Source: Lineus longissimus (taxonomy: Eukaryota). Taken from it: a stretch of DNA of 64,000 bases. This document shows, piece after piece, positions 12,226 through 60,400 of this stretch. The notes beneath the pieces are model-generated. The model had not been told where the DNA came from and searched no databases. It saw only the letters and a list, made by a program, of their open reading frames with translations. The stretch lies in the NCBI RefSeq assembly GCF_910592395.1, contig NC_088312.1, forward strand, positions 2,997,858 to 3,061,857. Reading direction: 5' to 3'. The translations under genes were made by a program, and so were the position numbers. Each line of letters begins with the position of its first letter. Position 1 is the first letter of the stretch.

Positions 12226-13632
12226 ATGGGCTGTACAATATCCACGGGGGAGAACGACTCCAACCCAAGGTTATTCAACGTGTACAATGTCGATGATCAG
12301 GGCCAAGAGTTGACACCGGGAAAAATAGAAGTTGGAAACACAGAACTGATTCTTTACCAAAAAAATAAGGAGCCTATTCGATGGCCCTTGCGTTGTGTTC
12401 GGCGGTATGGCTTTGATGCCGAACTGTTTTCTTTTGAAAGTGGGCGAAGGTGTCCCACAGGACCTGGAATATATGCTTTCAAATGTAAAAAGGCTGAAGC
12501 TTTGTTTAATTTACTGCAGGAATGTATACGGCTGGCTGGGCAAGAAGAACAGGAGCGCTACAACGCTTCTAGCTCTTTACCCATGAATGCCATGAGTGTA
12601 TCTCGAAATGATTCCCTAGAAACTGCTCAGACAACTAATGCTGGTAATTTATTGAACAGTAATATGTTTCCATCTCAAGGAGAGGAGCCCGCATCACCTG
12701 GTCACCATTATGTGAATGGAGATATTGCTTCTAAACTTCCTCCAGGACCCAGTGACAGTCGGGTCGCCTCAGATGAGGAAGGGGACCATGAGTACATGAA
12801 CGCTAGGTTACCTCGGCCTCCAAGTGAAGAAGCTGAGCTGATCCCTCTGGCTGATTTGAATGGGGTTCGTGTGGAAGTGGAGGGGGTTGCTGAACCTGAG
12901 GATATTGAGGATCCTGCTTCATGTGTAAATTACGCTGTATTAGATTTACCGCAAAGTATGGAAAGTCTGAGCCATGACACAAATGTTGCCAATGAACGTG
13001 ATCGTAAGGCAAGTGCCTATAGTACGGACTCTGATACACCACAGACAGTTGCTAATTATATGAACCTAGACTATGTTCCCGATGAGGCTGGCACTGCAGC
13101 TTCTGCACAACAGGACTCAACATACGTGAATGTTAATTCTGAGGGTGTAAATCAAAATGGTACACGAGCTGGGCGAAGGGGCAGTAGCACCAGTAACAAT
13201 CTTTTGAAGCGGACTTTACAAAAGCAAGCTTCGCTCGAACAGCATAATTATGCTAATCTTGACCTCATGCCAAATGGCAATGGCACAGCACCGCCGGCTG
13301 CACCGAGACCTCCGATAGCTACGGTGACAGTTCCACCGTCTGCTGCAGCCGCCGCAGCTGCGGCCCGAAGCAACGCTACAAGGAATGTCAACTATATCCA
13401 GCTCGACTTGGATCATAACAGTGATGTCTCAAGTGTAACCAGTACATCGCCAGCATCACCTAGAAGCATCGGATCAAATGGCCCGGAGTCGCCTGTTAGA
13501 CGACCAATGGAATCGTATGCCACCATAGATTTTGACAAAACTGCTGCTTTATCCAATTCTGCTAAAGCATCCAATGATGAAGGGTCGCGGAGAACGCGGC
13601 ATAGTAGCACCGTCAGTGACCCTTCTTACTAA
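12226..13632 (+). CDS. FRS2: FRS2-like FGF receptor substrate / docking protein, complete CDS in one exon (468 aa)
   Basis: MGCTIS gives N-myristoylation Gly2. The PTB domain ELILY..RWPLRCVRRYGFDAELFSFESGRRCPTGPGIYAFKC..AEALFNLLQE closely matches FRS2/FRS3. Multiple Y-x-N (Grb2-type) and Y-[IV]-x-[LV] motifs are present. The C-terminal NYIQLDL...YATIDFDKTAALSN...RRTRHSS matches the FRS2 tail. A Kozak caccATGG precedes the start. Confidence 0.9.
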   Translation: MGCTISTGENDSNPRLFNVYNVDDQGQELTPGKIEVGNTELILYQKNKEPIRWPLRCVRRYGFDAELFSFESGRRCPTGPGIYAFKCKKAEALFNLLQECIRLAGQEEQERYNASSSLPMNAMSVSRNDSLETAQTTNAGNLLNSNMFPSQGEEPASPGHHYVNGDIASKLPPGPSDSRVASDEEGDHEYMNARLPRPPSEEAELIPLADLNGVRVEVEGVAEPEDIEDPASCVNYAVLDLPQSMESLSHDTNVANERDRKASAYSTDSDTPQTVANYMNLDYVPDEAGTAASAQQDSTYVNVNSEGVNQNGTRAGRRGSSTSNNLLKRTLQKQASLEQHNYANLDLMPNGNGTAPPAAPRPPIATVTVPPSAAAAAAAARSNATRNVNYIQLDLDHNSDVSSVTSTSPASPRSIGSNGPESPVRRPMESYATIDFDKTAALSNSAKASNDEGSRRTRHSSTVSDPSY

Positions 13633-18750: not shown

Positions 18751-19088
18751 CCCCATGCAGTCAGCAGTGATTGATGTCTGGCTGACATATGGATGCAGAT
18801 ATCAAACTCGTCTGCAGGTCTTTTTTGTGATTGTGACTTCATATTATGGTTGTGACTTTGTCCCAATGCAGTCAGCAGTGATTGATGTCTGGCTGACATA
18901 TGGATGCAGATATCAAACTCGTCTGCAGGTCTTTTTAGTGATTGTGACTCCATATTATGGTTGTGACTTTGTCCCCATGCAGTCAGCAGTGATTGATGTC
19001 TGGCTGACATATGGATGCAGATATCAAAATCGTCTGCAGGTCTTTTTAGTGATTGTGACTTCATATTATGGTTGTGACTTTGTCCCAA
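18751..19088. repeat. Tandem repeat, 3 copies of ~112 bp
   Basis: Near-identical units, each starting cc(c/a)atgcagtcagcagtgattgatgtctggctgacatatggatgcagatatcaaa; this repetition produces the artefactual ORFs on both strands. Confidence 0.95.
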
Positions 19089-19599: not shown

Positions 19600-21480
19600 A
19601 AATATGGTCAAGCATAGAACCAAACCTAGATCCACCTCCTTGCCAGGAAGAGATAGCAGGTTTACCCCTGGATGGCTGGTTGTGACTTTGTCCTGCAGGA
19701 TCGATTGAGGAGTCCACTCAGGATTTGATCTGGTTTTGTTATGGATGAGCATAGTGTGTTATGTTGCATGGTCTCATTGTAAGCCCACACAAAAATTTGC
19801 CACATGTGACATTCTTAACTCATATCTAGAAACATGCTATTGAATGCAGTGACCCAGCCTTAACATGGTCTTATTGGGGCTCCATCCGCGTACAATCAAA
19901 TTCTGATCCTGTCCCTGTGCGCAGTGAGTGACAACAAATAGGCTGTCCACCAGTTGAAGTCACAATCAGTCTATGCTTAGAGTGAAGACACAATCATGGG
20001 TAGTTGTCCAGGCATGAGGTCTTTCAAACACAGACCCCAAGCACATATTGGTGCCCACAATTGCGACCATGCAAGGAAGGGATATAGTAGATTGACTCAA
20101 GGATTAGCTGGTTGTGACTTTCCTCCACAGGATTGCGGCTGGTCAGGCGTTGTCCTCATATTGGCTTTGTTATGGTCCTGGCTTGGCTGTGACTGCACCC
20201 TGAGCTTGGTGTAGCTGTAGACATAGGCATGGTCTTGTTGTGACTCCACCCAGAAAATTGCTTATTTGTTAACTTCCGTCTGGAAACATGCTCTTGCATG
20301 CAGTGAGCCTGAACATTGTTTGGTAGTGACCCCATCATGAGTACTGATTCTGTCCCTAACATGATCTTTGTGACTAAAGCCCGACACGCTCAAGGTGAAG
20401 TTACAATCAGACCGTCCTCAGGGTATAGAGCCAAAGCCCTGACTAAGCTGGTATGAGGGATAAGCAAAGGCCCATCAAGCAAGACCATGCCATGGAGGGG
20501 ATGTAGGTTTAACCCAGGGTAGGCGATTGTGACTGTGCCCTGGACGATCAAGGAGTGTAAGGTTTTAACTTCCTCCTGCCTTGGTTGTGACTACCCTCAA
20601 CATGGAGAAGCTGTAGGCTTACCCTGAGGTTGGGCGATAGTGACTTCCTCCTGCAGGATCAAGGAGTGTAAGGTTTTGATTTCATACCGGCTTTGTTGGT
20701 CTTAGCTTGGTTTTGACCTCCCTGAACCTGGTTTGGCTGTAGGTTGACACATAAAGGTTTGGCGATTGTGACTTGTCTTGCAGGAACAAGATGGGTCAGG
20801 TTTGGCTTTCCTACTGTCTCTGTGGGTCTTGGCATCGTTGTGACTACCCTTATCATGGAGTGGCTGCAGGTTGACCCGAAGGTTGGGTGATTGTGACTTT
20901 GTCCTGCAGGATCCAGGAGTGTATGGTTTGGACTTCTTACAGACTATGCTGGTCTTGGCTTTGCTGTGATTATCCTTAACATGAAGCTGCAGGTTGACCC
21001 AAAGGTTGGGCGACTGTGACTTCGTCCTCCACAATCAAGGCTGGTAAGTTTTTGACTTCGTACTGGCTTTGTTGGACTGAGTTTGGTTGTGACTTCCCTG
21101 AACCTGGAGTGGCTGGAGGTTGACCAAAAGGATAGCGATTGTGACTTTGTCATGCAGGATCAAGGTTGTCAAGGTTTTGACTTCCGACTGGCTCTGTTGG
21201 TCATGGCTGGATTGTGACCCCACTTAACATGAAGTGGCTGGAGGTTGACACAAAGATTGGTTGATTGTGATCAAGGAAGGAACTGGCTTTGTTGGTCTTG
21301 GCTTACATGTATATGTGACTGCCCTGAACATGGAATGGCTGTTCCAGAGGTTGGGCGATTGTGACTTTGTCCTGTGCAGGATCAAGGAGGGTAAGGTTTT
21401 GACTTTGTACTGGCTTTGTACTTGGCTTGTGACTACTCTGAACATGGAGCGACTGCACGTACACCCCTAGCACATGGTCA
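19600..21480. repeat. Minisatellite/satellite array, ~124-bp unit, more than 12 copies
   Basis: Period read from unit starts near 20506, 20626, 20752, 20878, 21002, 21124, 21248 and 21350, with core ggttgggcgattgtgactttgtcctgcaggatcaaggagtgtaaggttttgacttc. It shares the ggttgtgactttgtcc core with the 112-bp repeats. Confidence 0.85.
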
Positions 21481-36520: not shown

Positions 36521-36687
36521 GTATGGTAGTAGATCAATCATTCTTTTATGTGTTTGCTAATGCCACCAACTAATATTAAAACTGAACAAGTTCCAGGATT
36601 CCGTTCTGACAGCAAATCATTCAACTTAGTCAAACGTATCACCCAATGCCTCACATATTGAATGTCTGAATCAAATTTCATTTCCAG

Positions 36688-36851
36688 GTCCCTACCTTTT
36701 TGGAACTGGCCTTATTGCCACTCTCCTGTCCAAGGAAATCTGGGTAGTTGACCATGGCTTCACTGAGGTGTTAGGTTTCTGGGCTGCTATGTTCATCCTG
36801 ATCAAAAAAATTGGTCCTGCTTTTGGAGAATATTTGGATAAAAGGAGTGAG
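36688..36851 (+). CDS. ATP5PB: ATP5PB exon 4 (PYLFGTGLIATLLSKEIWVVDHGFTEVLGFWAAMFILIKKIGPAFGEYLDKRSE)
   Basis: Transmembrane and stalk region homologous to subunit b. Acceptor tttccag, donor GAG|gtttgt. Confidence 0.85.
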
Positions 36852-37129
36852 GTTTGTATTCTTTTGCTCTGTCTTAAGTTGTCTAAGGGTAACGGTTCAC
36901 TTATTCTCGTCCCAAACACTTGCAATGACCACCACAAACCAGCGATTTTTGTGGCATGCAGTCATTGCCCTGTTGTGTGGCAAATTATACTCCTTGGAGA
37001 CTGATTTATCCAGTCAATAGGGCACACAGAAGAACATGCCTTCGAATTGACGTGTAGCTTTGGATTCACGAGCTGTAATCTCACCCTGACATGAAAATGT
37101 GGCTGAAACTTGTTGATGTTGTTTTCCAG

Positions 37130-49456: not shown

Positions 49457-51596
49457 CCAGCATGAGGCATATCTTCCTCATGCACGAGTTCCGCATCATG
49501 GTGTCCATCTTCAAATCAAAACACGACAGAACGTTGAATTGAACAGCGACAATTCTTCCCGTCTTCTTCTCCAGGACGACATGGGACAGCCGGCTTGCTA
49601 AACTCCCCTCCCACACCGCATCCGTAAAGAGCCGCATATCTTCATTGCGAATCCCGGCCGAGCCGCACAGGGGACACTTCCTCACCATCCCATGCTCGAC
49701 AATCGGGTCGATTTCCTTGCGGTCGGATGGTTGCAGGGGTCGGAGTTGATATCGGCTTGCCAGCACGGTCTTTGCTTCGGCGACTAACCCAGTTTTTATC
49801 GTCTCTACGATCTCACTGATTGTCCGAGCAGCAAAGAAAGCCCCTATTTCTATAGCGTATCCTAAATTTCTGAGACCTGCTACTGCATTCACTGCTTCGA
49901 CTGAGTTACCACCAATTTGAAAGAAATTGTCTGAAAGTTTCACGCGAGATGTTCTGACACCGGTAACGGATGCTATGACGTCGACAACATTTCTGTTCAC
50001 GTCGTCTGTTTCTGTGCATCCGCTATCAATCAGGGTTTCATCGTAGATATCTTTCAGGCGTTCTAAGTCTATTTTGCCCGTGTGGCTTTGCACGGGCATC
50101 TCCTTCAGAACAACGACTGTCGGCACCATGTAATCCGGCAGGGAGGAGCGACATGCCTCCACCAGACGGCTTGCTTCCAATGCCCGTTTAGCATTCTTCT
50201 CCGTGACCGTGAATGACACGATTGTGCCCGCTGAACCCCTTGGTCGGCAGACGATAGAAACAACATCCTTGACAGTCGACAGGGAAGAAATCAGACGATC
50301 GATTTCAGACAAATCGACTCGTTGTCCTCGGATTTTGACTTGAGTGTCTCTCCTGCCGTAGAAGTAAATCCTCCCTTGTGCAATCTTGCCGTAGTCACCG
50401 GAACGAAATAGGGGACTCGCACCTGATTTCTCAATCGTGTTCTCCATGAAATCATCTGCTTGCTCCATTTTCATGTAACCATCCGCGACATTTTTGCCCG
50501 ACATCAAAATCTCGCCGATCTCCCCCTCAGCTACTGGTCGCATTTCATTGTCTACAACGTAGACAGTACAGTTGTCGATAGGCCCGCCTATGGACATTCT
50601 ATCATCGAGGCATTTCTCCTCAACATCTCTGACGTCTTGGAACACATCATAAGTGACATCACCCGTTACCTCGGTCGACCCATAGTAGTTAGCAAGGACA
50701 GTCCCACTGAAGAAGGAGAAGAACTGCTTGGCTAGAGACGGCGGGAGCGTCTCTCCGCTACAGACGATTAATTTCAATTTTGACAACATATTAAAACGGT
50801 CACTCATCTTCAAGTACAACAGCAACGTCTTTAGCAACGTAGGCACGACAACCAGTCTCGTTACTCCATGGTCAGTGACAGTTTTTACGAAAGACTCGGG
50901 GTTCTGCACGATGTTTCTTGGAATGATTACAACGGGAATCTTACGAAGTAAGCAGCCCCAAGTCTCCGTGATGCTGTCTACGAACAGTAGTGACGTTTTT
51001 GCCGCCCCCACCTCACTCTCCGTGAAGGGGAACTGTCGCCATTGCCAGCGAAGGCGATTCAGGACGCTACTGTGCCGCAAGCGGACCCCCTTGGGTTCGC
51101 CAGTACTACCAGACGTATAAAGGACGCACGCTAAGGGATCCTGATCATTTCCTTTCTGGTACGTTGTAAGCATTTTGAGCTTGTCGCCCAACAAATCGTA
51201 ATCAAGGAGTCGGGTACTTTCGCTGAAGATACTTGTCTTGTTCACAACTCCCGCATACTCCGCAGCGTAAATGATGATCTCTGGCTTGGCTTCACGGACA
51301 ATTTGCAACACCCTTTGTGGTGGGATCGTCGGCTCCACAGGAAGGTACCCCATGTGCAGTTTGAACGCTGCAAGGATGGTGATAATGCGTTTCTCACTCG
51401 GCGGCATCGCAATGCAAATCAGAGGGTTCCTATTGGTCTTCAACGGTGACACCATTCCCATGATTTCATGCTGTAACCGGCAGGCGACCAGGTCGGCCCG
51501 CTTGTTCACCTCCCCGTACGACATGGTCTTGCCCCCGTAGAAGATGGCTGGGGCGTCCGGGGATGCGCTGGCAATGTCCTCGAAGATATGGTGCAT
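49457..51596 (-). CDS. ebony: Ebony-like NRPS-like enzyme (beta-alanyl-amine synthase family), exon 1: complete adenylation domain, PCP/thiolation domain and start of the C-terminal domain (713 codons)
   Basis: A-domain core motifs LYTSGSTGEPKGV (A3), NYYGSTE (A5), YRSGDYGK (A7), GRRDTQVKIRGQRVDLSEID (A8) and PVQSHTGKIDLERL (A10). PCP motif FFQIGGNSVEAV with the Ser for phosphopantetheine. The stretch VLYTSGSTGEPKGVRLRHSSVLNRLRWQWRQFPFTE..FVDSI.E.WG..VVVPTLLK.LL.YLKM is near-identical to Drosophila Ebony. The exon ends at donor CTGG|gtaagt, 28 nt before the in-frame stop. Confidence 0.9.
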
Positions 51597-53339
51597 CAGC
51601 TTCCCATCTTCGCCTGGGGTCTTTTCGCCTCGGAGGATGCATAACGAAGACTAGAACGAGAAAGAGATTAACAAGAGTTAAAATTGGAAGACGTTTCGAA
51701 GAGAATGGTACATGTACGTGTATATGCACCTGTATCCTCCTCGTTGAACTACTAAAGGGCAACTACAGGCTTATAGCATGAGCCAGGAAGTCAGTGTAGG
51801 TTAGGCAGTGTTGTATTAACAATGACGGGCATACACATGATGTCGAGAGAAATAGCAACCTCATTTTCTATAGCAGCGACTTGCCCACTGATTCATCGAG
51901 GATCAGTAATCCCAACATCACCTTCACACAATCTAGTCGAAATTGCGCCCATTGTTTCCCAGTAGTATCGATTTTGGCACTGCAGGGAGATGTCCGAGTT
52001 GTAGCTACACTGTCATGCTAACATATAATGGGAAATATCAAAGGGGCAATTGTATGAGATTGCCTAATGAGGCAGAATGTAATGTATACGTAGAGCAACA
52101 TTCGGTCGTAGCCTCGAGGTATGGTTCACCTTTTACAATGATAGACACTATGGCTTTCATTACACTGAGGTATGGATCGACAGTCTCTTGAATACAATCT
52201 TCGACAAGAAAAGAGTATGAGTTGAGAGCTGAGCCCCAGCTGGGATATTATTAAACTAATATACTGGAGTTTTGTATGTGATGAAAAATGAAACTGAGTC
52301 GCCGAAAGAAGCATACGTTGTCAAAGTTCGTCCTCTCTATCACAGAAGGAAGTGGACCGACTGGGGACTGAACCACCTACAGATCAAGGTGACAAGCGCT
52401 CTACGACAATTTCAAACCCTAAAGTCTCAATGACATCTGGGTGTTCGTAATTTTTCTCTGTCTACAGGTAGAAACCATCAGTCAGATGGAGATGTCACAA
52501 GCTAATCCTCCGGAAAATGGCAATTTCACGCAAGCCAAAAGGAGAGCCCCCAACGCCAGGATGTTTAAAGGCAATTCACTAGTCCAATGATATGTCGTAA
52601 TAATCTTCTACAAAAGTACAAACACTGATAAGGTACTCTGCAGTGTTTGTTGTGCTTGTCAGTGTGTGAAACATGTCCATAACCGTCATGGCCTGATGAT
52701 ACAACCTGGCGGTGCTGTACTACGCTGTCATCCTCCCTGGTTTGGTGTTGCCAGTCTGAGTGCCTTTAAAAGCCTGTGGCATGTTTTACCCCCCAATCAC
52801 CCCTAATCGCCCGCCATAGCCAATCTCTGCCACGATATTGCGGATTCATTGCAAATGGATCAATACTCGGAGAATGAATTACTATCACCATTTTCTATTC
52901 AAAAGACCCGAATTACTTTGTTGACCGAGAAAGTATGATTTATTGGCGAATGTAGTTCCCGTACGTACACTTCCTGTCTGCAGGGGGGAATTTGCATTCG
53001 TCTGCTGGTTGGTGGTTGGTACGACGCGGTTTTAAAGTAATGGAGACAAAAAGTACACTGTTGAAACGAAGGCAATTTCCGCCGGCAACGTTATTAGTGC
53101 AGGGAAGTAGAACCGACGCAATCGCTGAAGGAATCTGGCTCTCTTCTACAGTGAAAATCGGCCTTTTTCAGTTTAGATTTTAGTTACCACGGTACGGCCT
53201 CTCTTACTGGAGATCCTCAGTTTTTGCTATAAGCGCATCACTTCATTGGGGTTTCTCCGCTGGTTCTGAAGAACTCCTGTGTAGGCTTGTTGAAGCTTGC
53301 ATTGGTAACGCCATCTTGTACCGTATAGACACCAGCGTG

Positions 53340-53445
53340 TTCCACCAGCCGACTGACCCAACAATGTATCACATGGGTAGTTGTAAAACAAGAAACACAG
53401 AAACGAAACAGAAACACAGAAACACAGAAACGAAACGCAGAAACC
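53340..53445. repeat. Left arm of large inverted repeat (gtatcacatgggtagttgtaaaacaagaaacacagaaacgaaacagaaacacagaaac...)
   Basis: Its reverse complement is found at 54296-54400; the arms include a short (aaacacag/aaacgaa)n microsatellite. Confidence 0.8.
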
Positions 53446-53840
53446 AGTCTTGTGGCGAATTCTGGTCTGCAAACTCCATCTTGTTGCCATGGTTGTGGCC
53501 GCGAACGCGGGTGTAACTAAAACCGGTATTCAGTCGGAATGGAAGGAGGAATGCTCATTTCCCAATACCCCTTTTAGCCTCATCAACGTGTGCGCAGATT
53601 GGCAGCATCCGGCCTTGATCGTGCCAATACACTACATGTATGTACTACACGGCGTAAATAGAAAATAGTCCTTCGAATAGCGAGTCCTGTTCTTTTGTAC
53701 ATTCCATGGCCTGTGCACGACACTAGGCTGAACTTCCCTACTGCAACCTCATTAACATAAACATATATTTAAAGGGACTATTTAAAGGCAGCAGCTGGGC
53801 AGGCAAGATTGAGTTACTCCAAGTCCAAGTCTAGTGCCCG

Positions 53841-53857
53841 CCCCCCCCCCCCCCCCC
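53841..53857. repeat. C17 homopolymer inside the IR-bounded segment
   Basis: Read directly from the sequence. Confidence 0.9.
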
Positions 53858-54121
53858 ACTTTACTCTATTCTAGTCGCCAAAATTGGTCTCTCACGTCTC
53901 ACATAACGTCGAAATGATTCACCCATGTACTGGTACCGTACCTTGCATTTAGTGCTGCATCAGACGGGATTTGTAGGATGATCCTGGTACTTCATGTAAA
54001 TTGAACACTACAAGGCAAGATGTTGCACTGCACCTTCATTTAAAATAACATGCTGTAGGAATCGAATCGAACCTACCAAAGTACTACACCACCACCTCAA
54101 AAGACTTCACATATCGTGCCG

Positions 54122-54149
54122 CCCCCTCCCCCCCCCCCCCCCCCCCCCC
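54122..54149. repeat. Poly-C tract (C5 T C22) inside the IR-bounded segment
   Basis: Read directly; it creates the artefactual poly-Pro ORF at 54116. Confidence 0.9.
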
Positions 54150-54295
54150 AAAGTTGCTCCATGTATCCCCTCAACAACTCTATTGCATTCCGGCTGGCCG
54201 CAACCCACCAACCTCAGATTTTACTTTTAAACGACAATAACAACGGATTGGGCAAGGAAAGTATCGGCGTGCCGCTTGATTCCAACCTTTTTGAA

Positions 54296-54400
54296 AACCC
54301 GTTTGATTTTCGTTTCTGCGTTTCGTTTCTGCGTTTCTGTGTTTCTGTTTCGTTTCTGTGTTTCTTGTTTTACAACTACCCGTATCACATAGTTTGTTAC
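54296..54400. repeat. Right arm of large inverted repeat
   Basis: Reverse complement of 53340-53445 (cgtttctg...gtttcttgttttacaactacccgtatcacatag). Confidence 0.8.
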
Positions 54401-57400
54401 GGATTGTACAGGATGCTTCCTCATACCCACCTGCCAAAACCAACCTTGATTTCTGCCTGCCACAACTGCTCCAGGATAATATCCTGCCTGGCGCCTCGCC
54501 TAATTGTGATAGACATTAGGCAGTGCCATCCCATTCCATTAGGACACAGGATGATCAAATTACCCTAATCAGTCATAAAGGGGGTGGGGGCTTCATATTC
54601 TACCAGTATCATCCTACGTTACGCCTACATGTGCTCTCAAAGATATCCTTTTGAGAACCCCGCTAAATTTCTGTGGTGAAGATCATTTTCCATCTTGTTT
54701 TAGGCCTGAGGGATATAGTCAGCAAAACTGTGCTGTTTGGTTTGCCACTTTTCAACGCCTACTCTTCTGTGTTCTAGAGGCTTTGGCAAAAAAATTTGGT
54801 AAAAAGTATTGGCTTATGCCAAATTTTATTCAAGCAACGAAGACGTTCTCTTGCCTTGTCAACAACGCCCACTTCGACCAATTGGCATTAAATGCACCAT
54901 TGTATTCTGAGGGAAGAGGCTGGTGTGCATATCTATTGCATCCGGAAGCTTCTTTACAGGCTTTGTATTCCACGGCTGATGAAAGGACGAACGACTGAGC
55001 CGTGCCGTTGATCGCTGCAGGAAAGACGAAGCAGATCGCAATGATGTCATAACGAAACTGCACGTAATACGGGATGTTTATGCTATATACCTCACTGACC
55101 TAATAGACCCAACGCGATGCATGCTTGCATTCTTCGCCTGTCCTTACCGATGAAATAATTGTTTGAATCAGCAACACCATTTCGGTATACGGCAACAAGA
55201 GGTCGGCTGTCACTTTTCCTTAACTGAAAGGCAATCCTATACATCATCGAAAACTTTATCCTTAGAGGAAGAAGGGTATCACTTCTTAGAGTTATTCACC
55301 GATGCAACTATTGGTAATTTCCTCAAGGAATGTAACTAGAACACTGCTTGTGATATATATATATCATATACACCATCCTCCATACCTTTATCCGTAAAGG
55401 AAACTGGGTATCATTGTGGCCGTATGGTATTCTCTTGCAAAGGCGGCAAGTAGCGCATCGAAAATCGATAACACCTTGTTGTACATTGCCTGAGCGCAAC
55501 CCTTCGTTTTAGCAGGCAGATTTAACATGATTTTTCATTAATCTCCCTGGTTTGACCAATGATATTTTATTTATTTACGTCTTTTACATAATTCAGATCT
55601 GACGAAACAGAAATATTGCCATACGTTTTTGATAATAGTATCCGTGTATGAGTTCAAAGCATGCCGGCAGTGATCGAAAGGTGACGATTTTCTTTGAATC
55701 TTGAATAGATCAATCAGCACACTGTTGTCATTGAAGATGCCCTAATTATATACCGGCTCGAAGGTAGATTTTTAAAGAAGTTTCATCCGTGTACAGTATG
55801 ATCACGAATGTGAAGTAAATGTTCATTTTTATATAATGTCCTTTCGAATCAACTATTTGTCGGAAATATTCATGAGATAAATGAAAAATCACAACGTCCA
55901 TGATGGGTACGATCCATATGGGAGACATTCGATCCGTATCCGGATAGACGCAATACCAGCGCACATCCCTAAAAACCATATAGAAAAAGTTCGTCAACAG
56001 TCATGACTTGTGTAAAGAGAATTACGTTGATTGACTGTCCATAAACATTTTATGTGGATGCAATATTGACTTGACATTTCGCCATGCTCGCCGTCATTTT
56101 GTAAAGCACGGCAAAGACGGCAATGTCCTTTTAAGCTTCCGGCTGGAGCGTAAGGATCGATGATGTCATTACAGGCCACGTCGAAACAGAGAAATCAGAG
56201 GAAACCGTAGATTCAGACGACTGGGGATCGGTCTGTATTCCCTGTTGGCTTACTGGACTTTGCGCAAAGAAAGCAACGCACATCAGGAAATGACATGGGT
56301 TAAGTGCGGTCAGTATCCCAGACAAGACGGTTATAGTCGAATTGGCGAGTGTGTATTTTGGCGACAGCAAGCCGTTCTGGGATCCTTGCCTGACTGCTAA
56401 CTGCATGTCCATTGGGCATGTGGACAATTGGATAAAAAAATGTACATGTGACACGCAAGTACTGGGCCAACTCAAAATATCTAGAGGCTGTGACTGGGGA
56501 TGATGAACCTAATCTATTCCATTCTATTTCCATGGATACTGAACAAGCCATCGGATGCCTGAGGAAAGACACGGATTTGGTTGCAATGCTGCTAGTGTTT
56601 GCCAATTCGCCTGCAAGCGAAAAAATCCGTTAGAGCAGAGTATAAAGTGGCTCTTCTATATTTGCTGGTAATAAAGCAATTTCAGTCACGTAATGAAAAG
56701 AGCTTCAGCAACCCACCATGCTTGTTCTTGGTCTGTTTGGACTGATCATTCATGTAACTTGGTGACCTCACCACACGTATAAGAGATGCCATCAGGTTCC
56801 CAAATTAACAACACTATTGTAAAAAAGGAAACAGAAGATATCCGAGTAATCTAACGAGAGAGGAATGGCCATGCGTGGATGCCGGCGGCGCCAATATATC
56901 TCCACCCTCGCATTATATTGATTGGACTACTGCTATAATGCATTGATTTATTTTTATGTTGGTATCCGAGAAGATCTTGAATCTTGAAATTCGCAGATGA
57001 GTCTATGTGACCTTTTGTATATTTTCTAGCCATCTGCCTCTTGATAGATTTATAAGACATGAGATTTGTATCTACAACATAAACCAATAAAGTACCTGAA
57101 TTTAAAACACTGCATTTTCTATTCTTTTTGCCACGTCTTCCATGCCAATTTACAAAATGTATCAGCGTTGTGCGTCAGTAATCTTCTTCAAGATTCATTC
57201 AGGCCTGACCTTTAAGACTGACGCATAACTTCAACCAGTTTACTCCATGAATCGATCAATCAATACTAAATTCAACCAGCTAGATGTTGATAAAAGTCAG
57301 TACTAGATAAGTCAACAATGCCCGGGGGCATGATAATCAAATAAATATATTCTGGTCCTGAAACATTCGATTTGAGGTTGGATGACTTTTGATGAATTTT

Positions 57401-60400
57401 CTATTATCTCAAGGTCGTCAGGCAATATCTTTCATTAGCATCGATATTCCGTTATTTTCTATGCTGATAAAAGCGCTTGCGCTGGCTATAACTTGGGGCC
57501 TTACATTTCAATTCGCTAGCTTTGTCTTTGAAATTAGCTGATATAACTAGCTACACGCTAAAGTGATGGATGATCAATGAATGTCACAACAGCAATCCCC
57601 TCAAATCAAATGAACGTCAAGAAGGAAAATCGATTCTGGATGGTTTTGCTGGTGATATGCCACTGGGGGTTTTCCATCAGAGATGAGATTAGCTACGAAT
57701 CACGATGGAAGGAAGATATTCTTAGAAACCTACTGGGCCAAGACTTGCGGCAAATATGAGAATATGTCTGAATCATGTGTTCATGACTGGTAGTCTCACT
57801 GTCCTAAATATTTATGTGGGCCACAACACTGTCATGAGCATCTAACATTCGGATTCTTAACACTCTACAAATCGCCCAATGTAGGTGACGTGTTCTTTTA
57901 AATCTTTAAAATCGCAGATGGGACAAAATAATAGTAGTGGATAAGCTGCTTGATAGTAGCAATGAAATTGTCTCAACTGCCGTGAGTCTATCAGGAATCA
58001 GCCATTGATCGCCAACTCATGGTACTTTGTAATGTTTGTGAACAAGTTGCTCTCCTAATTTCCTCGCACGCCATGCCATAAGTGAGGGAACATTGGGGCG
58101 GAAATTAGGAGCCTGATGGGCTTTTTATTTGTCATCCTGTCGCTCTGCTTCCGGCCAGACTTCAGCCTCCAGACTCCATTAGTACATGAAAAAAATATAA
58201 TCAAAGAAATGAATTCGCCCTCTATACCGTTGCTTTCAATCTTGTAACAGAATTACCCCCACCAGCCACCCCCATACATCTATAATGACCATGTTCACCC
58301 TTAAACCCCACACAACCTCAAAATGAAACCGATGTCTTCATCTAGCGTTTGTGAGCGGTTCATGTCTGCGTTATTGAATGCTTGGTGAAGGCATCACTTG
58401 CTTGTTAGCTTGTCAGTATTCCGAAACTCCGCCAGTAGAATGCGTATCACTATGTACAGTAACAACACATATACATCATTTTACTCACCACTCTATGAGG
58501 TGCCTCGTGATAGCGAGTCCTCTTCGTTAACAAGCCGATCCAACCAGTGCAGATACTGGACACGAACTGAGACCAGCTTTCAACGACTCCAAAACACTGA
58601 CCCATGTTTGTTACCTTTCGGTTCCTTCCACAAATAGGACTCAAAGCTGATAATGAAATCAGTAATAACCGGTATCCTTATCGCGTCATGAGAGCGGCGT
58701 AGTCGCGAGGCTAGCCGCCCAGTTCTTCCTAGCCTTCTTCTCCACCAGCTCCCTGCCTGACTCGCCCACAGCCTCACCACAGCAACCTACTCCAAGAATC
58801 TCTCTCGAACATGAACAGTTTCTCCTTGATCAATGACATTCGTTGGTGTAGGCGTGCCTGAATACGGTGTGCAGACTTCAAACCAAAGAGAATAATCAAC
58901 AGGTTATTACAATTGCAATGTCTCCAATATCTGAGGTAGGTTTATCATAGTAAGGTCTTCAATTTCACAAATCGAAATCACTATTCCTGGTGCAAAATCG
59001 GAAAACCTGCCATACCGAACCAATATTTCGAGATGATCGAATAGCTCAATATAAAGAAGAGAATGTTGAGATCTACAGACGGTATGAAAGTTCAGCTACA
59101 CCGGCACTTCTGCTTGTCATCACAGGGGAAATCAAACCAACTGTTTCTATCACGCCTATAGCCCTAGCTAACATCAAGGGGCTAATATTTCCCGATAAAA
59201 GGACATGTATATTCGATATCGTCCAGGATGGCGGCCAATTGGCTATGATGTAAAAACGATCGGCAGAAGCTTCAGTTGGCTTGTTTCTTTTTTATGCCGA
59301 AGGTGCAGGCGTTAACAATGCTTCAGCGATTTTTCCTTTAGTATTACATATCGAAATGTATCTGGGAACATGCTCCAATAGATGACACTGGTAATATCCC
59401 AGTCCAATCGATGATGCTTGGCAAAGGAATGTCTCGCTCCCACCAATCACCAGGTCACTATGTTATTGTCCAACAAACCATGAAATGAAGCTGTTAACCC
59501 TGTTCGACGTTCACTACCTTCAGCCACAATCCCAGTGCTCCGACGACCTCTGGAGTTGCTTCTGCCTTCAGAAGTACAATCAATCCTGTATCTTAATGAC
59601 CTTTATTTTGTCGGTTCACTTTGACTCTCTACATCGAATGCTACCAATGTCTCGGAGGTCCTCACCTACTTCGCTTCTCCAATCCATACCTCCTTTACTT
59701 TGGAATCGCCCCTGAGCACCCACTAGCAATCATTAGCAAAAGTCATCATATCCAAACCCCTGTAGAGCTTCACTTCAAATGTCACTCCCTTCCTTGTCGT
59801 TGTATTAAGTTCTGAGGTCACAACCAGCTAATATTATTTGCTTCCCCTGTCAACAGACCGTTTGTATCATGCAGTTCATGTATCCCCAGCAAATGTATCC
59901 CTATAGCAAAGTTCTGCCAGCCAGCCAGCCCCTGATAACTAAAGGACCTCTAAATCTACACCCGACATGACTTCCTTCATACACCGAGTGGCTGTAACAC
60001 ATGATATAGTCGTCTTCCTTCGTGGCTTCTTCAGTTGGCTCACAATAGTGTGGGCGACAACTGCTGACAGTATTGCCAATTTCCATTAATGAGGAAGGGT
60101 GATGCTCGCATTGCCTTTGACTTTTGCAAGATTACTTATGCTAATAGGTCGTGATTAATTATATCACGCAATTTAGCATTAAATGAGGGTTCTCTGTAAT
60201 TTTTGTTTATACCAAAATATCTGACTGAGCGTATTAGCGTTCTCGGAATAAGCAAAGCGGAGTTGTGAGAGTGTTGTCTCTCTGAATTTGTTTAACTGCG
60301 AGGTATAAACTAAGGGGCATGAAAACGTAGTGCATATCTTTATCGCTGGTTACTCTTCTTAGCCCCCGCAAGAACACCATGAAAACCGTTCAAGGAGCTA

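Follow-up and report, generated by a model that had tools for sequence, protein, structure and literature searches.

The ebony-like gene of the nemertean Lineus longissimus that is considered here has its closest described counterparts in insects and flatworms. Drosophila Ebony consists of an adenylation (A) domain, a carrier (T) domain and, instead of a condensation domain, an arylalkylamine-N-acyltransferase-like domain. The flatworm non-ribosomal peptide synthetases (NRPSs; Schistosoma Sm-NRPS and planarian nrps), which are lophotrochozoan members of the same Ebony clade, make beta-alanyl-tryptamine, a reproductive signal (PMC11214079, PMC10531068). More distantly, bacterial NRPSs such as LgrA (PDB 6MFZ) contain homologous A-T modules, and the insect arylalkylamine N-acyltransferases (PDB 6V3T, 4FD5 and 3TE4) are free-standing, acetyl-CoA-dependent enzymes. 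The Lineus gene lies on the minus strand of a 64-kb stretch of the genome (NC_088312.1, positions 2,997,858 to 3,061,857; hereafter the window, in whose coordinates all positions are given). It is an ordinary member of the Ebony family and is already known: it is annotated in RefSeq under an ebony-like name, and a survey of NRPSs across animals, published in 2023, tabulates ebony-clade matches from L. longissimus (PMC10531068, Table S5). Its entire A and T domains are encoded by one giant exon. We argue, at a probability of roughly 0.8, that the product of the gene is a single-module, NRPS-like enzyme of the Ebony type and that the giant exon is an inherited ancestral layout, going back at least to the protostome ancestor.

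The Lineus protein has the same domain order as Drosophila Ebony and shares with it the motifs FVDS, NxYGSTE..GD, GGNS and GK[IV]D. Identity over the A-T region is about 38%, and the predicted third domain superposes on that of the fly protein at 1.9 Å. Third-domain identity is only about 20%, and the preferred amine may therefore differ. In gene structure the two are less alike. The fly gene has five coding introns, two of them in the A domain, and has lost the last intron of the family; the Lineus gene has none in A or T and, unlike the fly gene, possesses a unique 39-amino-acid N-terminal exon. Compared with the bacterial modules, every core motif is present, at 27-32% identity, but the Lineus protein has no condensation, epimerisation or thioesterase domain, and its single module is fused to a GNAT-fold domain that is absent from the bacterial proteins sampled.

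The longest open reading frame (ORF) of the window is a stop-free minus-strand frame of 723 amino acids (51596-49425); the second longest has 468 amino acids and all others have 204 or fewer. Its top database match was an 883-amino-acid NCBI protein, "beta-alanyl-bioamine NRPS ebony-like [Lineus longissimus]" (hereafter P0001). Using our own exact spliced aligner against genomic loci, from which all gene models were derived, P0001 was reproduced exactly by four minus-strand exons. The coding part of exon 1 (58489-58605, 117 nt) runs from an ATG at 58605 through 39 codons (MGQCFGVVES...APHRV) to a GTGAGT donor. It is followed by intron 1 (51651-58488; 6,838 nt, phase 0, GTGAGT...TTCTAG), giant exon 2 (49457-51650; 2,194 nt, codons 40-770 plus 1 nt), intron 2 (49211-49456; 246 nt, phase 1, GTAAGT...TTCCAG), exon 3 (49008-49210; 203 nt), intron 3 (48671-49007; 337 nt, phase 0, GTACGT...TTCCAG) and exon 4 (48533-48670; 138 nt), which holds 45 codons and a TAA stop. 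All three introns are of the GT...AG type with pyrimidine-rich acceptors.

This model both supports and corrects an earlier, sequence-only reading of the locus. That reading had correctly identified an NRPS-like, ebony-type gene, as borne out by the domains, the motifs, the structural match to Ebony described below and the name of P0001, and had seen that two bona fide spliceosomal introns (246 and 337 nt) follow the large exon. It had drawn this exon as a 2.14-kb block (49457-51596). The block is indeed uninterrupted and its 3' end is exact, but its 5' end is merely an ATG inside the exon, the true 5' end being the acceptor at 51650. Likewise, the A and T domains are both complete within it, as proposed, but it also encodes some 115 amino acids, the first half, of a third domain; and of the small flanking exons the two on the 3' side had been found, but the 5' exon, 6.8 kb upstream, had been missed. 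The 18 codons preceding the ATG at 51596 (SSLCILRGEKTPGEDGKL) contain no in-frame ATG and can be aligned with the conserved N-terminus of the homologues. Indeed, the stretch …ILRGEKTPGEDGKL within this upstream region aligns with VLRGRETVVEA of Owenia and IVKGQQQDYVP of the fly. The conservation of these codons and their lack of a start support an acceptor at 51650, to which a 5' exon is spliced.

The giant exon is shared well beyond this locus; comparison of homologues revealed the same large exon in Tubulanus, Owenia and a scorpion. The coding exons measure 2388 + 138 nt in Tubulanus P0009, 2122 + 123 + 173 + 135 nt in Tubulanus P0015, 2403 + 156 nt in Owenia P0010, 2502 + 138 nt in Owenia P0012 and 2082 + 246 + 132 nt in the scorpion Centruroides (P0118). 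The pancrustacean genes are different: that of Drosophila grimshawi (L003) has 6 coding exons and 5 introns, and that of the shrimp Penaeus indicus (L004) has 19 coding exons and 18 introns spread over 88 kb. Thus, in Nemertea, Annelida and Chelicerata a giant exon is what is normal for this family.

We then placed the intron positions of these eight genes, representing four lineages, on a MAFFT alignment. In Lineus the last intron of the family is intron 3, which lies in phase 0 at P0001 codon 838, some 45 codons short of the stop. It occupies the same column, in the same phase, in seven of the eight, the fly alone being without it. No intron interrupts the A or T domain in any of the six non-pancrustacean genes; only the pancrustaceans have them. 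Four of the fly introns coincide with shrimp introns in column and phase and so date to the pancrustacean ancestor, and none of the 13 shrimp A/T introns is common to any of the six non-pancrustacean genes. The additional third-domain introns found outside Pancrustacea are lineage-specific and fall at codon 770 (phase 1) in Lineus, codons 736 and 778 (both phase 1) in Tubulanus P0015 and codon 755 (phase 0) in the scorpion. The most parsimonious reading is that the protostome ancestor had one giant exon and one 3' intron and that introns were gained in Pancrustacea, in what looks like a burst of intron gain in the ebony-like gene.

Single-ORF calls from metagenomes, through which the two other Lineus paralogues were assessed, agree with this layout. 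P0004 (812 amino acids) and P0002 stop exactly at intron positions. P0002 belongs to a relative 89% identical to the Lineus gene and its ORF end coincides with intron 2; P0004 is a relative of P0003, one of the three Lineus paralogues in this family, and its ORF end indicates the same giant-exon layout. The ebony-like gene of an unidentified ENA eukaryote (P0014; L008, ERZ24900295 contig ctg6683l) is a single ORF of 2,856 nt.

Several further features of the alignment are of separate interest. Within eight columns (843-851; P0001 codons 770-778), where the third domain has a variable loop, lie introns of three lineages, those of Lineus (intron 2) and Tubulanus P0015 being in phase 1 and that of fly and shrimp in phase 2; this clustering could be due either to independent insertion at a hotspot or to the sliding of one old intron. 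P0014 carries, near the start of its A domain, an insertion of about 20 tandem copies of the eight-residue unit THGSDPLM. Finally, P0008, P0013 and P0016 have unrelated tails directly after the conserved ...HPVT, the site of the conserved last intron. To judge from these tails, the public models probably read through that intron and omit the final exon.

The sequence-only reading had further suggested that spliced exons were added at the 3' end of the gene at a later time. The structure of the third domain does not fit this idea. Its first part (49458-49754, minus strand), an Ebony-type C-terminal domain with an arylalkylamine N-acyltransferase-like GNAT fold, is encoded by the end of the giant exon, and the remainder by exons 3 and 4, of which exon 3 supplies the middle and exon 4 the last two strands. 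Pfam found nothing significant in the C-terminal 225 amino acids, but these matched the C-terminal domain of Drosophila Ebony (PDB 6DYM) with E = 5.2e-7, the match covering chain residues 7-204. Residues 655-883, modelled with AlphaFold, gave one α/β domain (predicted local distance difference test score, pLDDT, 89; predicted template modelling score, pTM, 0.87). Its top fold match was again 6DYM (template modelling, TM, scores 0.84/0.89; root-mean-square deviation 1.9 Å), followed by the insect arylalkylamine N-acyltransferases (TM 0.69-0.82). In this model the β-strands are distributed across exons 2, 3 and 4, and the sites of introns 2 and 3 (model residues 116/117 and 184/185, respectively) each lie within a helix. 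The last 115 or so codons of the giant exon are therefore predicted to form one compact domain together with exons 3 and 4, and the introns would have been inserted into a pre-existing domain. Consistent with this, in Tubulanus P0009 and both Owenia genes the large exon contains the whole third domain save its last 46-52 residues.

The A domain spans 50037-51596 and the T domain 49797-49988, both on the minus strand. Pfam AMP-binding (PF00501) matched residues 5-374 of the ORF (50475-51584; E = 1.4e-63), NCBIfam TIGR01733 the adenylation region (E = 1.8e-81) and PP-binding (PF00550) residues 537-600 (E = 3.9e-9). The core motifs are readily recognised: A3, TSGSTGEPKG (51087-51116); a variant A4, FVDS (50973-50984); A5, NYYGSTEVTGD (50658-50690); A10, GKID (50067-50078); and the phosphopantetheine attachment motif GGNS (49902-49913). 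Pfam detected only these two domains in the 723-residue ORF, and no condensation (PF00668), thioesterase or reductase domain. A canonical modular NRPS was accordingly rejected, Pfam showing neither a condensation nor a release domain. AASDH (ACSF4-U26), the other A-T protein of animals that activates beta-alanine, was also considered and set aside; it needs a PQQ-like beta-propeller after A-T, where the Lineus protein has the 225-residue GNAT-fold domain.

Two of these motifs, in A4 and A5, define a family signature. We compared the best 120 homologues of P0001, all ebony-like and, where named by organism, all nemertean, annelid or arthropod, with 149 top-scoring non-animal megasynthases; the search for the latter returned only multi-module megasynthases, in which scores add up over modules. 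F[VI]DS was found in 111 of the 120, in place of the FDxS of bacterial modules, so that the A4 aspartate is shifted. NxYGxTE..GD was likewise present in 111/120 family members and in 0/149 megasynthases, which use NxYGPTE. P0001 carries both signatures as well as GGNS and GKID. We take the shift of the A4 aspartate, together with the G-D after the STE of A5, to point to a putative pocket for a beta-amino acid, going by the Stachelhaus positions. The third-domain profile gave a similar contrast, matching 113 of the 120 animal homologues, none of the 149 megasynthases and none of the 78 metagenomic NRPS loci (957 kb in all). The metagenome scan with P0001 returned bacterial NRPS loci only; one candidate among them, L035, turned out to be a GC-rich two-module bacterial NRPS.

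To place the family, a neighbour-joining tree was built from 575 columns of the A-T region, using 30 animal sequences and, as an outgroup, 12 modules taken from the non-animal megasynthases with the highest scores. Six of the outgroup proteins were looked up and the four that were named (Ktedonospora, Tenacibaculum, Lentzea and Nocardia) are all bacterial; of eukaryotic A domains, the sampling covered those of the animal Ebony family only. The animal family was monophyletic against the 12 modules in 200/200 bootstrap replicates, as were Pancrustacea and Chelicerata (200/200 each), and every Lineus paralogue paired with a metagenome relative. A-T identity is 34-48% to other animal phyla versus 27-32% to the bacterial modules. 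On this sampling the phylogeny thus looks vertical, and the large exon recurs in sister taxa, two outcomes on which the sequence-only reading had made its suspicion of transfer depend.

The base composition is that of the host, again as the sequence-only reading had judged. GC content at third codon positions (GC3) lies at 0.34-0.60 in coding fragments nearby; the giant exon has 0.59, within this range, and the small exons of the gene have 0.68. Relative synonymous codon usage of the giant exon correlates negatively (-0.19) with that of a neighbouring FRS-like ORF; we do not take this as a sign of foreign origin, because GC3 is similar in other fragments nearby and in the spliced exons of the gene itself. 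The observed/expected CpG ratio is 1.02 in the giant exon (49457-51650), whereas the window as a whole has 0.64 and the FRS-like ORF 0.71. Such a value may mark a gene body that escapes germline methylation, as in tissue-restricted invertebrate genes.

By analogy with Drosophila Ebony and the schistosome and planarian enzymes (PMC11214079, PMC10531068), from which the mechanism is taken over, the predicted activity is ATP-dependent conjugation of beta-alanine to a biogenic amine. The A domain would adenylate beta-alanine, which would then be held as a thioester by the T domain, on its phosphopantetheine arm; the arylalkylamine-N-acyltransferase-like domain would bind the amine, form the amide and free the beta-alanyl-amine. 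The acyl donor would presumably be this carrier-bound beta-alanyl thioester and not the acetyl-CoA of the free-standing insect enzymes, and the same chemistry as in flatworms would be expected. In terms of gene structure, the ancestral frame would have had A, T and most of the third domain uninterrupted and, some 45 codons short of its stop, a phase-0 intron. To this frame Lineus would have added one 5' exon and one phase-1 intron, and the pancrustaceans many introns.

How an intron-poor gene came to exist can be explained in several ways, of which one addresses how the whole family arose and can hold alongside the reading favoured here. An intron-free bacterial A-T module might have entered an early animal and been fused to an arylalkylamine-N-acyltransferase-like domain, the scarcity of introns being a relic of this event. 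We regard such an ancient transfer as possible, though clearly short of an even chance. The best solved structures related to the A-T region are all bacterial NRPS modules (linear gramicidin synthase, about 200 bits per module), with fungal relatives scoring about half (98-112 bits), and A-T identity with bacterial modules is 27-32%, where comparison with other animal phyla gives 34-48%. In addition, a coding block of 2.1-2.5 kb has been kept free of introns in the intron-rich genomes of three phyla, and the confinement of the third domain to animal proteins in our sampling, with its nearest folds also animal, points to a chimera. The likeness of ebony to microbial synthetases has long been noted (Hovemann 1998, as cited in PMC11214079). 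However, no donor clade emerged from the tree with 12 bacterial modules, composition is entirely host-like, and the junction between T and the third domain has no intron where exon shuffling should leave one. Moreover, ebony-clade homologues have been reported in Hydra, Saccoglossus, amphioxus, priapulids and flatworms (PMC10531068, Table S5); with a range from Cnidaria to Chordata, any transfer would be very old and hard to tell from vertical descent at differing rates. The fuller scenario, in which a stem animal joined an intron-free A-T module to an animal acyltransferase, slowly evolving lineages such as nemerteans, Owenia and the scorpion then kept this state for more than half a billion years and the pancrustaceans underwent a burst of intron gain, is more speculative and seems to us rather doubtful. 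In general terms, an ancient intron-free founder of the whole Ebony family, whether by transfer or by retroposition, is plausible.

Retroposition, in which the Lineus copy or the family founder was a processed mRNA copy that acquired introns later, would also account for so long a stretch without introns in a genome otherwise rich in them, and the presence of three Lineus paralogues is in keeping with it. After a founding event of such age, neither a poly(A) tract nor target-site duplications would still be expected. For the Lineus copy, for which the sequence-only reading had raised it, this origin is excluded, because the copy retains the conserved phase-0 intron at a position shared by four lineages. 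The giant-exon layout is, in addition, common to the P0003-type paralogue lineage (via P0004) and to Tubulanus P0015, and overall we consider a retroposed origin quite improbable. A different possibility is that the ancestor was intron-rich and shrimp-like, and that chelicerates and lophotrochozoans lost their A/T introns independently, for example by recombination with cDNA. The 18 introns of Penaeus, four of them matched by Drosophila in column and phase, would fit such an ancestor, and wholesale intron loss is well documented in animals. However, not one of the 13 shrimp A/T introns survives in the six non-pancrustacean genes, and an identical end state, with only the 3'-most intron kept, would have to be reached at least twice. 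Loss through cDNA favours 3' introns, the opposite of what was retained here. This makes an intron-rich ancestor unlikely. Lastly, the idea of bacterial contamination or a recent transfer into Lineus has nothing in its favour beyond a bacterial-type domain family. The exon lies between spliceosomal introns, the flanking genes (cadherin, C-type lectin and ATP synthase subunit b) are animal, the nearest relatives, judged by the best 120 matches, are all animal, and GC3 is in the host range; the chance of this explanation is negligible, and the sequence-only reading was right to discard contamination.

We therefore favour an Ebony-type enzyme gene with an inherited giant exon, but several points weigh against this reading. 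The proposed polarity of intron change is derived from eight genes in four lineages only, namely Nemertea, Annelida, Chelicerata and Pancrustacea. Monophyly of the arthropods was recovered in only 23/200 replicates of the 575-column neighbour-joining tree. The putative substrate, beta-alanine, is suggested by motifs at presumed pocket positions. Exon 1 and the splice junctions are likewise predicted, from the NCBI model, from splice sites of canonical form and from conservation.

Exon 1 is unusual in its own right. The 39-residue N-terminal extension that it encodes was absent from every homologue aligned and is specific to the Lineus gene. It begins MGQCFGV, in which Gly2 followed by Cys4 resembles N-myristoylation and palmitoylation signals, and P0001 might be anchored to a membrane through this exon. 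Downstream of it, intron 1 contains a 70-nt inverted repeat (53375-53444 and 54312-54381), whose arms are 99% complementary and separated by 867 nt. A low-complexity run, ...TETQKRNRNTETQKRN..., is encoded by short ORFs on both strands, and the element is possibly of the foldback type or similar to a miniature inverted-repeat transposable element.

The neighbouring genes were examined by running Pfam on six chosen stop-free fragments. As the sequence-only reading had described, they are split into small exons, the fragments holding partial domains: Mt_ATP-synt_B at 36630-37001 (profile positions 1-47 of 163), Cadherin at 42757-43146 (positions 16-92 of 93), with a second cadherin-encoding fragment at 42042-42374, and Lectin_C at 43932-44333 (positions 39-107 of 107). 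An exception is the FRS-like gene on the plus strand (12226-13632), a single 1.4-kb ORF of 468 amino acids with an IRS-type PTB domain (E = 5e-19). It starts with MGCTIS, resembles FRS2/3 and has a GC3 of 0.38; because of this gene, long exons are not unique to the ebony-like gene in the window. Tandem repeats were found at 18751-19088 and 20580-21270 (111 bp x 3, with 96% matches, and 126 bp x 5.5, respectively). A third, at 42390-42546 (31/64 bp x 5), separates the two fragments that encode cadherin.

The useful part of this analysis, although of modest interest, is the comparative intron pattern, with one exon of 2.1-2.5 kb and a conserved phase-0 intron outside Pancrustacea. Introns are not mentioned in the 2023 survey (PMC10531068), and our literature searches found no discussion of the pattern. 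The pattern bears on whether the ancestor of Ebony was intron-free, through transfer or retroposition, and on the timing of intron gain in pancrustaceans. If an origin from a bacterial module is true, the Ebony family would be a clean natural experiment on the colonisation of a transferred gene by introns. Elsewhere, products of the family serve as pigment precursors, neurotransmitter-recycling intermediates and reproductive signals, and the three Lineus paralogues could therefore be of interest for nemertean chemistry.

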